Origin: Leucoraja ocellata
Taxonomy: Eukaryota
Length of the DNA stretch: 64,000 bases
NCBI GenBank assembly: GCA_036785375.1
Contig: JAWMAR010000061.1
Coordinates: 9,176,001 to 9,240,000, forward strand
Direction of reading: 5' to 3'
Below the pieces are notes generated by a model that worked only from the letters and a program-made list of their open reading frames with translations, was not told where the DNA came from and did not search any database. Position numbers and translations under genes: made by a program. This document shows positions 8,301 to 11,726 of the stretch, one piece after another. Each line of letters opens with the position of its first letter. The stretch's first letter is position 1.

Positions 8301-11300
8301 AACGACCTGACCTGCTGGCCCTGCTGAATGTTTCCATATTGTTTTTGCTTTTATTTCTTAATAGTAACATTTGCTGCTTAAACAAGGAATGGGGCTGGCA
8401 GTTTACAAAAAGCGCGCACCCAAACGCAGTGATACTGAATGACCAGCTGGTCTTGTTGGTGGCAGTGGTCTAGGAACATTGGTGCAACCTCAAGGGCAAC
8501 TCCTCAATTTGTCCTTCAAACAATACCACGAGTCCTTATGCCACCAAATATTCAGCGTAACATCTGAAGGACATACATATGATCAAACCATACTTGCTAG
8601 GTGGTGCAATGAACTATCAGCCATGACTTTGTGCTCAGATTTCTGGAGTGGAACTTGAATCCACAGCCTTTGAAGCCAGTGACAGTATCGTCGAGGCACA
8701 TCTCATAAATACTAGCTCGCACCAGCGCAGCACCAATACTTGAGAGGAATTGGTCATCATTTTCCACCAAACCCCCAGCAGATGTTGCAAAACCAAGCAG
8801 ATTGCTGGTTCTTACTTGGGCCCAGGAAATGAGAGTCTGCAGTCTACTCCACTATCACAGCCCCTTCTTGTTCCCACAGAAACCTGTTGAGAACACATGG
8901 AAACAGTAATCCACCCAACTTCTCTCCTCCCCTCAGTCAATGGGATGTGACCTTAGCAACTAAATAGTGGAACCTGGGACCACCTTGATCCAGAAGCAAG
9001 ACAGCAATCACTGAGAGATTATGAGGTGTCTCATTGTTCATGAGTCCACCACTCTAGTATTTTGATGAATAAATCAGCGAATGGCTCTCCTACCTGTATG
9101 AATGACATCAGTGTGTTGTAAATGAAAGCACCTCTTGGGAGGAAGAAACAGCTCCCCGGGCTGAGCTCATGGAAGAAAAACAATTCCTGTTCCTGGAAAG
9201 CAAATAGAAGTTAAATCAATGAGAAACAATGTACATCACAAACCTTGCTTATTTTGATCCCACTGCCAAAGGAAATAGGCCCTTCCTATTTACTCCACCC
9301 ACGACCACAATTTGCACACCTTGATTAAGTCTTTCCACAGCCTTCACTGTTCCAACGGAGATAACCCTCCAATACGGGGCACAGGAAGCAGAGGGGACTA
9401 TAGGCAGCTGTTTCACAAAAGTGGCCATAGATTAGGTGAATAGCTATTTCCCCAAAGTAGGGGAGTTTAAAAATAGAGGCTTAAGGTGAGAGGAGAAGAT
9501 TTAAAAGGGAACCAAGGGGTCATTTTTTCACAGTGTGGGTACAAGGAACAAGCCACGATTGGAAGTAGTAGAGGTGGCTACAATTCTGATATTTAACACA
9601 CTTGGATAAATGTGTGGCGAGGAAAGAAATGGAGGGGTATAGGCTAGGCACAGGCAAGTGGGACTTGTTCGGTTAGGCAACTTGGTCAGCATGGTTACAT
9701 TCAGCAGGGCCTGTTTCTGTACTGTGTAGCTCAATGACTCATACAACACAATGTCCAGTATGTGTCTGGATCAAATTAATTGGAACTCTCTTCTCCTCAG
9801 TGGCTTTTGCATTGTCCAAGCTCTGCCCATGCAGTGGTTTTCTTTCACGATTTGCAAATCATTTTTAACCTTGAACATCAAACTGGAATTTAGAAGGATG
9901 AGAGGACATCTCATAGAAATATATAACATTTGACAGGCTAGATGCAGGAAAAATGTTCCCGATGTTGGGGGAGTCCAGAACCAGAAGTTATAGTTTAAGA
10001 ATAAGGGGTAGGCCATTTAGGACTGAGATGAGGAAAAACTTTTTCACCCAGAGAGTTGTGAATCTGTGGAATTCTCTGCCAAAGAAGGCAAGGGATGCCA
10101 ATTCACTGGATGTTTTCAAGAGAGTTAGATTTAGCTCTTAGGGCTAAGGGAAAAGGCAGGAACGGGGTACTGTTTTTAGATGATCAGCCATGATCATGTT
10201 GAATGGTGGTGCTGGCTCAAAGGGCTGAATGGCCTATTCCTGCACCTATTTTTCTATGTTTCTAACCACAGAAATGTTCCCATACCCGTCCAATGTTTCT
10301 GTGATCGAAGTTATTGGTTTCTTCTTGCTCTTTCTGCATATTGCTGTCAAGGAAAGCGGTTCCAGAAATTCTTTCCAATGTCTCCATGTTGGACTTGCCT
10401 TCCGAATAAATCGAGGAGTTCTTCAAATTTGTATATAAAAACACAATCATTTCAACTTTTAAAACAATATTATACGATTGAGATGAAAATCATTGAAACA
10501 TTCTCCCTGGTCTAAGAGTGGACAGCATAAGTTTTCTCTCCTTAAAAATTCTGAAAGCTTTAATTTGGTCACGATGCAATTAGTCAAGATACTTTCAGCA
10601 GTTCATCAACATATAGAAAATATTAGTTGTCATGCCAAATGTCTTTGCATTTCTAAGAATGTAGCGTTGCTGACATGCCTTCTTCATGATTATGTTTACA
10701 TGCTGGGCCTGGAACAGGTCATCTGAGATATTAACACCCCGGACATTAAAGCTGCTAATGCTCTCCATTGCCGACCAACCAATGAAAACTGAATATTCAT
10801 TGTCACCCCTTTGGAAGGAACCCTCAGACTGTTTAACCATGCTTGATGAGTGTAAGCATAATTCTGGTATCATCCTAAAAATATATATACACAGTCAACC
10901 CTCGTTATAACAGACCTTAAAGGATAGGTGGTGTCTGTTATTGACGATTGTGCACTATAACTTGGTAAAGGACTATTATTGTATAAATAGTAGAAACGCG
11001 CAACTAAAGTAGCTCCAGATGTTTGTGTAAAGCACATCTTAAGCATTATCGTCCCGTCAGTTATTTCCCTAAATACAATGTTGATTCCTAATGAGGCAAC
11101 CGGTTTTATCTTTCATCCATTTTAATATCACAGTTATGGTACAAGCGCCTGACCATTTTAGGTAGTAAATCAGTGGATTAGGATGACAGATGTCCTGTGG
11201 CAAACTGGATGAGGTTTTAGGATAATGCAATAACTTACGTCATTACACAATGTACTGTATTGGTCTCCTCATTTAAGGAAAGACGTTAATGTGTTGGAAG

Positions 11301-11726
11301 CAGTCAGAGAATGTTTAAGACATTAATACTTGGAATAAGGAGGGGGGGGGGTTGCCTTACGATTTTACACCGAGCACTCTAGTACTTGTCAATTAGGGAG
11401 GTCAATGGGCAGTGAGGTTCAGGCAACGGTGCCCAGTAGAGCTGGTGTCCCTCACACCAACCTGTCCCAGATAATTACCGCCCTACCTGGGGCCCAGGAC
11501 CGGCGCTGTGTGGAGCCGGGCCCCTCGCCATCTCCGCCCGCAAACTCCGCTGCAGGTGCAGTCGCCGGTACTTCAACTTCTCGTTCTCCTCTCTGAGGCT
11601 CTGCAAGTCCGAGCCGACTAGCAACTCCTCGTCTTCACTTTGCAGCCGCTCAATCACTTGACTGAGCCGACGGACCTCAACCTCCTGGTCGGCCAAGAGC
11701 TGCGCTATCGCCGCCGCCGCCATCAT
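2137..11726 (-). CDS. TARS3: Threonyl-tRNA synthetase 3 (TARSL2), 12 coding exons, 1596 nt / 531 aa, lacking TGS and most of the editing domain
   Basis: Exons 11726-11487, 10420-10286, 9192-9094, 8047-7881, 6533-6371, 6038-5901, 5526-5449, 5363-5263, 5101-4997, 3169-3100, 3024-2910, 2321-2137 join without stops. ThrRS motifs [80 protein letters not shown]. The N-terminal leucine zippers and the TM2D3/TJP1 synteny indicate TARS3 rather than TARS1. Confidence 0.9.
2910..3024 (-). CDS. TARS3: TARS3 exon (anticodon-binding domain)
   Basis: [38 protein letters not shown], 115 nt. Confidence 0.9.
3100..3169 (-). CDS. TARS3: TARS3 exon (start of anticodon-binding domain)
   Basis: [29 protein letters not shown], 70 nt. 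Confidence 0.88.
3660..4505 (+). mobile_element. Degenerate CR1-type LINE fragment interrupted by a Penelope-derived hairpin (~3910-4143)
   Basis: CR1 RT-like remnants ([11 protein letters not shown]...[15 protein letters not shown]); nested agacacaaaatgctggagtaactc...gcatctgcagttccttcctac. Confidence 0.6.
4997..5101 (-). CDS. TARS3: TARS3 exon (motif 3)
   Basis: [34 protein letters not shown], 105 nt. Confidence 0.92.
5263..5363 (-). CDS. TARS3: TARS3 exon
   Basis: [33 protein letters not shown], 101 nt. Confidence 0.92.
5449..5526 (-). CDS. TARS3: TARS3 exon
   Basis: [26 protein letters not shown], 78 nt. Confidence 0.9.
5901..6038 (-). CDS. TARS3: TARS3 exon ending in a GC donor
   Basis: [52 protein letters not shown], 138 nt. 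Confidence 0.88.
6371..6533 (-). CDS. TARS3: TARS3 exon (motif 2)
   Basis: [54 protein letters not shown], 163 nt. Confidence 0.92.
7881..8047 (-). CDS. TARS3: TARS3 exon (motif 1, Zn-ligand Cys)
   Basis: [36 protein letters not shown]...LKPMNCPGH, 167 nt. Confidence 0.92.
9094..9192 (-). CDS. TARS3: TARS3 exon (start of catalytic domain)
   Basis: [37 protein letters not shown] bounded, 99 nt. Confidence 0.92.
9880..10262 (+). mobile_element. CR1/HER1-type LINE 3' end
   Basis: [12 protein letters not shown]..., [43 protein letters not shown] and the 3' UTR gatcagccatgatc...gaatggcctattcctgcacctattttctatgtttcta; close match to the copy at 60.7-61.1 kb. Confidence 0.8.
10286..10420 (-). CDS. 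TARS3: TARS3 exon: degenerate end of N2 domain plus linker
   Basis: [45 protein letters not shown] resembles ThrRS NSSTYWEG...LQRIYG...RDHRKIG; weak AAG acceptor, GTATGG donor, phase 0-0. Confidence 0.75.
11487..11726 (-). CDS. TARS3: TARS3 exon 1: N-terminal ArgRS-like double leucine-zipper extension
   Basis: [29 protein letters not shown]...[25 protein letters not shown]...GPQ|GTAGGG, 240 nt, phase 0, CpG island. Confidence 0.85.

Follow-up and report, generated by a model that had tools for sequence, protein, structure and literature searches.

We analysed a 64,000-nt stretch of the Leucoraja ocellata genome (contig JAWMAR010000061.1, positions 9,176,001 to 9,240,000; hereafter the window) and found that it carries a TARS3 gene which has lost, in frame, the TGS domain and the editing site of threonyl-tRNA synthetase (ThrRS). 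The sequence and the RNA splice data both support this loss and the expression of the short gene, as the first-pass annotation of the window had proposed. The gene lies on the minus strand, and its 12 exons join into 1,596 nt encoding an open reading frame (ORF) of 531 amino acids (aa) with a single terminal stop, which reproduces the 12-exon, 531-aa ORF without stop or frameshift claimed earlier. Every splice acceptor is AG, and the donors are GT in ten introns and GC in one. Pfam searches identified the class II core (PF00587, E 2.9e-41) and the anticodon domain (PF03129, E 5.3e-13) and no others, and the protein matched the core of human TARS1 with E 8e-205. It differs at one residue from the Logan-derived protein P0010, while the RefSeq Leucoraja protein shows three residue differences and a difference of one codon.

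Loss of the editing region at the TARS3 locus

The window gene is a TARS3 orthologue, not the canonical editing-competent one. This identity is supported by the RARS1-type zipper, the core domains, the TM2-domain neighbour and a separate TARS1. The RARS1-like leucine zipper is described as the defining TARS3 feature (PMC6794377; PMC3592468; here and below, statements from published work refer to the accessible parts of the papers cited). By spacing, the skate residues L11, V18, L21, I25, L28 and L44, L51, R55, L58, L62 correspond to ten human zipper residues given in PMC6794377. A profile of eight zippers found human RARS1 20-83 as its sole strong structural match (E 1.7e-15) and also matched many proteins named SYTC2 or threonine-tRNA ligase 2; between skate families, the zipper shows two changes in 62 residues. 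Directly downstream of TARS3 lies a gene encoding a TM2 domain (E 3.4e-15, about 3.8 kb past the window edge), presumably TM2D3. The human locus has been named 'TM2D3-TARSL2' (10.1101/653691). The separate TARS1 is located on contig C130, where 17 exons with the full editing region were recovered. In a tree of the core, the window gene fell into a 100/100 clade of shark and ray zipper proteins, apart from its own TARS1, the one TARS1 included; the link of this clade to tetrapod TARS3 was not resolved.

Exon 1 (240 nt, phase 0) and the NSSIYSEG exon (exon 2, phase 0), placed about 1.07 kb apart by the first-pass annotation, are separated by 1,066 nt. Among the raw oligo-dT RNA reads of run X24, of which about 5% were examined, 13 reads with 10 start points leave out precisely 10421-11486, an interval bounded by GT..AG on the minus strand, and an X18 contig joins 10420 directly to 11487; transcripts with this junction, proposed earlier as a check, are thus present. 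In the X10 and X16 contigs, exactly 234 nt (exons 2 and 3) separate exon 1 from exon 4. X10, X16 and X18 are RNA by guess, though their contigs are spliced, and the four runs including X24 represent four studies; among the runs listed as carrying the sequence none is recorded as RNA, and the evidence of expression comes from the aligned reads and contigs. At the DNA level, an X3 contig, which carries a different species label, covers 10270-11767 in one piece with 6 letters different, while intron 1 is covered by two abutting contigs in X6 and by two contigs with a 6-nt gap in X2.

Searching the genome with Heterodontus TARS3 residues ~72-317, in a stricter first pass, gave a match only on C130 and none on the window's contig. 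The tRNA_SAD search likewise matched C130 only, and the TGS search (PF02824) found nothing in the protein or on the window's contig and matched C130 and C463 only; such genome searches are lower bounds on what is present. The TGS match on C463 was rejected as displaced TARS3 exons, C463 carrying what we take to be a DRG-type GTPase, and a weak tblastn match at 11910-12086 (E 0.1, opposite strand) was dismissed as chance. The chance that we are looking at an assembly collapse or a minor splice isoform, with the editing exons present in the real genome, is vanishingly small. The genome searches are lower bounds, but the splice in raw reads and contigs together with an independent DNA contig across the 1,066-nt intron excludes a collapse, the three RefSeq skates agree, and a fossil exon with a dead donor lies at the junction. 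The first-pass annotation had named three outcomes that would speak against its reading (missed exons, transcripts containing them, or an unexpressed gene with dN/dS near 1); none of them came true.

The six TARS1 exons of 191, 124, 122, 118, 65 and 79 nt (699 nt) have no counterpart at the window TARS3. Judging from TARS1 and from the 232-aa gap relative to Hypanus, the ancestral TARS3 would have had the same six exons. In the numbering of E. coli ThrRS (thrS sequence as reference), which is used throughout, the editing-site residues H73, H77, D180, C182 and H186 are absent from the window protein, and only the 201-249 tail remains. We also noticed that a lost helix in the first missing exon (PSYIEERLRLY in Hypanus), absent from the short forms, is similar to the 4EHP-binding motif of TARS1 (PMC6430810).

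The interval 10421-11486 had been described as repeat debris only. This proved wrong, since a fossil of the last editing exon lies at 10566-10541. Read on the minus strand, 10567-10541 gives QIKAFRIFK, the end of the DLCxGPH exon, for which Hypanus has KIKAFRVYK. When positions were scored with 13 full-length sequences of sharks and rays, the fossil ranked first of 127,942 window positions (33.2; next 22.5) and also exceeded all 159,942 positions in the 80 kb around TARS1, where the true TARS1 exon scored 29.3. Directly after it the sequence reads GAGAGA where a GT donor would be needed, and 120 nt separate the fossil from exon 2 (185 nt in TARS1). The repeat fragment adjoining it (10567..10790) is, we assume, LINE-like (long interspersed nuclear element). 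None of the 39 other copies listed aligns past 10566 (query position 225), and three other copies likewise stop matching one another at the same point; the repeat was either cut by the deletion or inserted into the exon first. As the fossil is what remains of the last editing exon, the lesion has its right edge within that exon. With the donor of that exon lost, exon 1 was left to splice, phase 0 onto phase 0, to exon 2.

The earlier claim that the N2 exons are gone holds for the editing site, whereas the tail of N2 is retained as exon 2, which lines up with residues 201-249 of E. coli ThrRS, where N2 ends and the linker helix follows. In skates, this exon keeps the equivalents of Y205 and R217, has Ser for W206 and Y219, and carries a deletion of four residues. 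The N2 hairpin 201-214 is reported to read the tRNA acceptor stem (PMC4756836), and Y205 and R217 to matter for charging in yeast (PMC3592468). Between skate families, differences occur at 7 of 41 exon 2 sites and at 26 of 380 core sites (p=0.03).

Separate losses and selection on the short gene

All three RefSeq skates carry the short TARS3 (Amblyraja 533, Leucoraja 530 and Rhinoraja 535 aa), and Logan-derived skate proteins have the same form (529-531 aa). Full-length proteins with TGS and SAD are found in the rays Narcine, Hypanus, Hemitrygon and two Mobula, and in Heterodontus, Heptranchias, Pristiophorus, Mustelus, Cetorhinus, Carcharodon and two Scyliorhinus. Short forms are further annotated in four carpet-shark species (Stegostoma 489, Hemiscyllium 481 and two Chiloscyllium 473 aa) and in the bichirs, a ray-finned lineage, namely Polypterus (520 aa, P0174) and Erpetoichthys (521 aa, P0178), both named SYTC2 or ligase 2. 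Their junction differs from that of skates, as the zipper exon is joined straight onto the EQELFFF exon and exon 2 is gone too.

We then considered how widespread such forms are. Of the 151 matches of the zipper-profile search 120 were listed, 99 of them with the catalytic-core motif; among the matches listed, three lacked all three editing-region motifs (the skate and two carpet-shark clusters). Six further listed proteins without one or two of these motifs are taken as gene-model or isoform effects, and the 12 short Logan matches examined came from other vertebrates as fragments or represented read-through of exon 1. The survey is incomplete, since the profile search missed the bichirs, which turned up only in the representative search, and included almost no mammals; further TARS3 editing losses may exist.

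In the tree of the shared 380-column core, skates nested with the full-length rays (100/99). A single clade of skates and carpet sharks was rejected by the approximately unbiased test (p-AU 0.007; quick tree, 21 of 37 rows), as were carpet sharks with bichirs (p-AU 0.00015) and all three groups together (0.00002; 25 of 39 rows). Because monophyly of the short forms is rejected, three losses are indicated, apparently separate, in skates, carpet sharks and bichirs. With phase 0 after exon 1 and before exons 2 and 3, the editing block could drop out in one in-frame step, which would explain why separate losses occurred.

Comparison of the short genes indicates that the ORF is under purifying but relaxed selection. 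Relative to organism B, the coding differences comprise 7 silent (343 sites) and 2 replacement changes (1,250 sites), giving P=0.0005, or 0.004 with 30% silent allowed for; these figures count listed differences only, but the nearest proteins differ by just 2-3 residues. Relative to organism C, exons 1 and 2 carry 2 silent changes and 1 replacement in 375 nt, and intron 1 at least 21 changes in 1,066 nt. All four coding indels seen are in frame. On the path to skates, change at invariant sites (21 of 233) was about fourfold lower than at variable sites (49 of 147). Several observations weigh against strong constraint. Of the skate-family core differences, 12 of 26 fall on otherwise invariant sites, and the same measure gives 15/29 in carpet sharks, 6/12 in bichirs and 13/15 in lamnids, compared with 25 of 192 differences in seven leave-two-out controls; Heterodontus-Heptranchias (8/35) is the sole shark or ray pair like the controls, the pattern being relaxed in six of seven pairs. 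At the 128 deepest-conserved sites, skates show 8 differences where 8.8 are expected at random.

Catalytic residues and possible function

We examined 12 zinc, threonine and ATP residues (C334, H385, H511, R363, E365, F379, D383, Y462, K465, Q479, Q484 and R520); the list is drawn largely from structure work on E. coli ThrRS. All ten short proteins keep 12 of 12. The anticodon-loop residue R583 is kept in none of them (K/Q, Q or T instead) and R609 in six, whereas all 16 full-length bony-vertebrate copies keep the 12 as well as R583 and R609. Skates further show Y313C/S and N364R/S, and R609 is His in Rhinoraja. In the window protein R583 is Lys while E600 and R609 are kept, so that the trio R583, E600 and R609, described as strictly conserved for binding (PMC6430810), is incomplete. 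Among the 13 full-length shark and ray copies, seven keep all 12 residues and nine keep R583. The other six have lost catalytic residues: R363H, D383G and R520H in Narcine; R363H, Y462C and R520H in Carcharodon; R520H in Cetorhinus; R520S in Mustelus; and Y462P in both Scyliorhinus. By these replacements, the proteins P0028, P0020, P0002, P0031, P0032 and P0021 are probable pseudo-enzymes that kept the editing domain.

On balance, we lean towards skate TARS3 being a non-translational, zipper-tethered, dimerising protein that binds threonine and ATP, with TARS1 doing the charging. Docking of the short protein on the multi-synthetase complex would fall to the leucine zipper. The core would form dimers, either with a second copy or with TARS1, and likely still bind threonine and ATP; we predict weak charging of tRNA and, as the sequence lacks the editing region, no post-transfer proofreading. 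If TARS1 supplies all Thr-tRNA, the editing and tRNA contacts of TARS3 would become dispensable. The zipper, the core and the anticodon-domain fold are common to all vertebrate forms seen, suggesting that selection acts on these parts. Binding, charging and tethering are inferred throughout.

Published work offers a background to this reading. TARS3 reportedly enters the multi-synthetase complex only with both of its zippers, and it co-precipitates TARS1 without them (PMC6794377). TARS3 charges and edits in vitro, editing by N2 (PMC5909460). According to PMC10200997, TARS3 knockout in mouse and zebrafish leaves tRNA(Thr) levels and charging unchanged, and Tars1 is an essential gene; growth is stunted in mice lacking Tarsl2, while the zebrafish knockout looks normal. 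Yeast cytosolic ThrRS 311-734 lost much activation and charging and did not complement (PMC3592468), and an N-terminal deletion of E. coli ThrRS kept activation and charged more poorly (PMC4267643).

The first-pass annotation had left the choice between a repurposed threonine/ATP-binding protein and an error-prone synthetase. The former appears to fit better, because Y313, R583, W206 and Y219 are eroded, and because the cut yeast enzyme is impaired and TARS3 knockouts leave charging unchanged. An MST1-like enzyme that charges tRNA(Thr) also with serine inside the complex, the damage being limited by TARS1 or by low abundance, is in our judgement unlikely. All 12 residues with H309, R375 and E600 are kept, and skates retained the exon with the two residues important for charging in yeast; MST1, which has no editing domain and carries Lys for R583, makes Ser-tRNA(Thr) in vitro (PMC4756836; PMC4267643). 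Such charging has to be set against Cys or Ser at Y313, His for R609 in Rhinoraja, the losses of R583, W206 and Y219, the failure of a cytosolic-type ThrRS cut before its core to complement (PMC3592468), and the carpet sharks and bichirs, in which the Y205/R217 exon is gone too; TARS3, even when intact, is reported to contribute no measurable charging in vivo (PMC10200997).

Slow decay, which the first-pass annotation missed, has real evidence, and we regard it as a rather unlikely but serious account. Under it, a nearly dispensable elasmobranch duplicate is kept merely folded and harmless, or for its zipper, and the deletion is one tolerated lesion. This is in keeping with the relaxed pattern in most shark and ray pairs, the catalytic losses in Narcine, Carcharodon, Cetorhinus, Mustelus and both Scyliorhinus, the fast exon 2 and the normal-looking zebrafish knockout (PMC10200997), but not with the frame being intact in all skate, carpet-shark and bichir sequences seen, the ratio of silent to replacement changes, the roughly fourfold slower change at invariant sites or the growth phenotype of the mouse knockout. 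A takeover of the mitochondrial function from TARS2, like that of MST1 in yeast, is very improbable. We did not find TARS2 in the genome search, which gave two ThrRS loci only, the window gene and TARS1 on C130, and the window protein is like MST1 in its architecture and in having Lys at 583. However, the assembly may lack TARS2, or the search may have overlooked it; alternatively, skates may have no TARS2, and a TARS1 isoform could then be left as the mitochondrial ThrRS. The first 35 residues are acidic (8 D/E, 3 R/K; a composition check only), unlike a presequence, RNA coverage stops near 11757, short of any upstream ATG, and several shark and ray orthologues without catalytic residues cannot be an essential enzyme there.

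Returning to the tethered threonine/ATP-binding protein, the following weigh against it. Skates retain Y205, R217, R375, E600 and mostly R609, and active MST1 carries Lys at the R583 position (PMC4756836), so that the R583 change need not abolish charging. The catalytic losses in six of the 13 full-length copies imply that threonine/ATP binding may not be the selected part. At ~9% change per invariant site, all 12 residues would survive by chance about one third of the time per lineage, so that even all three lineages combined lend no more than modest support to selection on catalysis. Of the ten zipper positions, nine being hydrophobic, one leucine is Arg, and the carpet-shark and bichir short forms are known from annotations only. 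Structure predictions speak neither for nor against this reading: AlphaFold2 with a 20-sequence alignment gave a mean predicted local distance difference test score of 51, from which only the two zipper helices were noted and nothing on exon 2, and a complex prediction without alignment for the zipper and the skate AIMP1 first coding exon scored 0.02 and gave no verdict. More tentatively still, TARS3 could have converged three times, in skates, carpet sharks and bichirs, on a minimal zipper-wired threonine/ATP-binding dimer minus proofreading and some tRNA grip, that is, a complex-bound threonine sensor or adenylate-forming adaptor, which would show the role of mammalian TARS3 in growth and muscle.

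The role of TARS3 is puzzling, as it charges and edits in vitro and contributes no measurable tRNA(Thr) charging in vivo, but mice without it are stunted (PMC10200997). Three in-frame deletions and the catalytic losses of sharks and rays show that editing is dispensable there and argue against trans-editing as the general role of TARS3. The natural alleles (zipper and core; zipper, hairpin and core; full length with a dead site) could be used to ask which part rescues the mouse phenotype. One paper describes the editing residues of TARSL2 as strictly conserved (PMC7337962), and another holds that its catalytic activity has persisted through evolution (PMC11088916). The short proteins are already in RefSeq under generic names. 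We found no paper remarking on them in the literature searched, which held few subscription journals and whose supplementary alignments may include these species; within it, the three short forms would be the first natural examples from vertebrates of a cytosolic-type ThrRS that is editing-less.

Features of the window and comparison with known systems

The coordinates of the features are listed in Table 1. After the conserved terminal Phe, skates only have a 12-aa C-terminal extension (2173-2137, minus strand), which probably arose by stop-codon loss. The GC-AG intron at 5900-5527 (minus strand) is borne out by RNA reads, and the corresponding TARS1 intron is GT-AG. The lysine run at ~2950-2935 (minus strand), in place of the conserved KKIRN, varies in length, 3 nt being missing in 44 of 47 X24 reads. 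Upstream of exon 1, at ~11770-11910, lie about four copies of a ~33-nt GC-rich unit, of which 66 nt are absent in organism C.

Table 1. Features of the TARS3 locus and its neighbour in the window
Feature	Position	Strand	Remarks
Exon 1	11726-11487	-	240 nt, phase 0, GT donor; RARS1-like double leucine zipper aa 1-80, helices ~2-30 and ~40-67
Intron 1	11486-10421	-	1,066 nt; deletion site of six editing-region exons (699 nt in TARS1)
Old interspersed repeat fragment	10790-10567	-	69-83% to other copies; adjoins exon fossil
Fossil 3' end of last N2 editing exon (xIKAFRIFK)	10566-10541	-	26 nt; GA where GT donor should be
Exon 2 (NSSIYSEG)	10420-10286	-	N2 tail (acceptor-stem hairpin) and linker helix with 4-aa deletion
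Exon 3 (EQELFFF)	9192-9094	-	Catalytic core starts
Exon 4	8047-7881	-	H309 kept, Y313 to Cys, zinc ligand C334
Exon 5	6533-6371	-	Motif 2: R363, E365, R375, F379, D383, H385 kept; N364 to Arg
Exon 6	6038-5901	-	GC-AG intron comes next
Exon 7	5526-5449	-	Y462 and K465 kept
Exon 8	5363-5263	-	Q479 and Q484 kept
Exon 9	5101-4997	-	Motif 3: H511 and R520 kept
Exon 10	3169-3100	-	Shorter by one codon than in TARS1 and other TARS3
Exon 11	3024-2910	-	Anticodon domain; lysine run of variable length in place of I582/R583
Exon 12, coding part	2321-2137	-	E600 and R609 kept; stop at 2139-2137
5' part of neighbouring TM2-domain gene	773-191	-	Synteny marker; boundaries by eye

Elsewhere in the window, 106 of the 114 longer ORFs (12-64 kb and one intron ORF) had no Pfam match, and Rfam gave none. 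The segment 28001-29000 is CpG-rich and GC-rich with short tandem units, is without match in Pfam and Rfam, and is possibly a promoter or first exon of another gene. Outside the window, contig C25 was rejected as the AIMP1 locus, having no N-terminal exon, and C139 is the right one. On C139, the exon for the AIMP1 tRNA-binding domain occurs twice at equal score (C139:4988779-4988925 and 4980983-4981129, 7.8 kb apart), by either local duplication or assembly artefact. Another class II synthetase has two inverted copies with identical scores (C305:2133018-2133221 and 2842394-2842597), and C2:13354260-13354897 is an intron-poor class II-like match.

Vertebrate TARS3/TARSL2 (ThrRS-L, SYTC2) and the skate form have in common the RARS1-like zipper, the class IIa core, the anticodon domain, the TM2-domain neighbour, a separate TARS1 and core exon sizes as in TARS1. 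In contrast, the skate form lacks ~232 aa comprising the TARS1-like N-extension helix, TGS/N1 and N2 up to the last hairpin, and with them HxxxH and DLCxGPH; its tRNA contacts are eroded, and the 12-aa extension is added. Yeast MST1 is similarly made of a core and an anticodon domain without editing domain and has Lys at the R583 position. However, MST1 is an essential organellar enzyme with its own tRNA-recognition adaptations, whereas the skate form is of cytosolic TARS3 descent, has an acidic zipper and stands alongside an intact TARS1. Engineered ThrRS (yeast 311-734 and the E. coli N-terminal deletion) share nearly the same domain boundary; they are artificial and impaired in charging, while the skate form arose naturally, still has the sequence of the 201-214 hairpin and carries the zipper in addition. 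In crenarchaea, ThrRS is split into catalytic and editing proteins, and the catalytic half has no editing domain; a 471-aa 'probable threonyl-tRNA synthetase 1' (PDB 3a31) was among the matches. Crenarchaea thus encode a separate editing protein, whereas no free editing half was found in the skate genome, only full-length TARS1. Human catalytic-null splice variants of aminoacyl-tRNA synthetases (PMC5909460) likewise represent domain pruning by in-frame exon loss; they lose the catalytic domain by splicing, whereas skate TARS3 lost the editing region from the genome and kept the catalytic domain.

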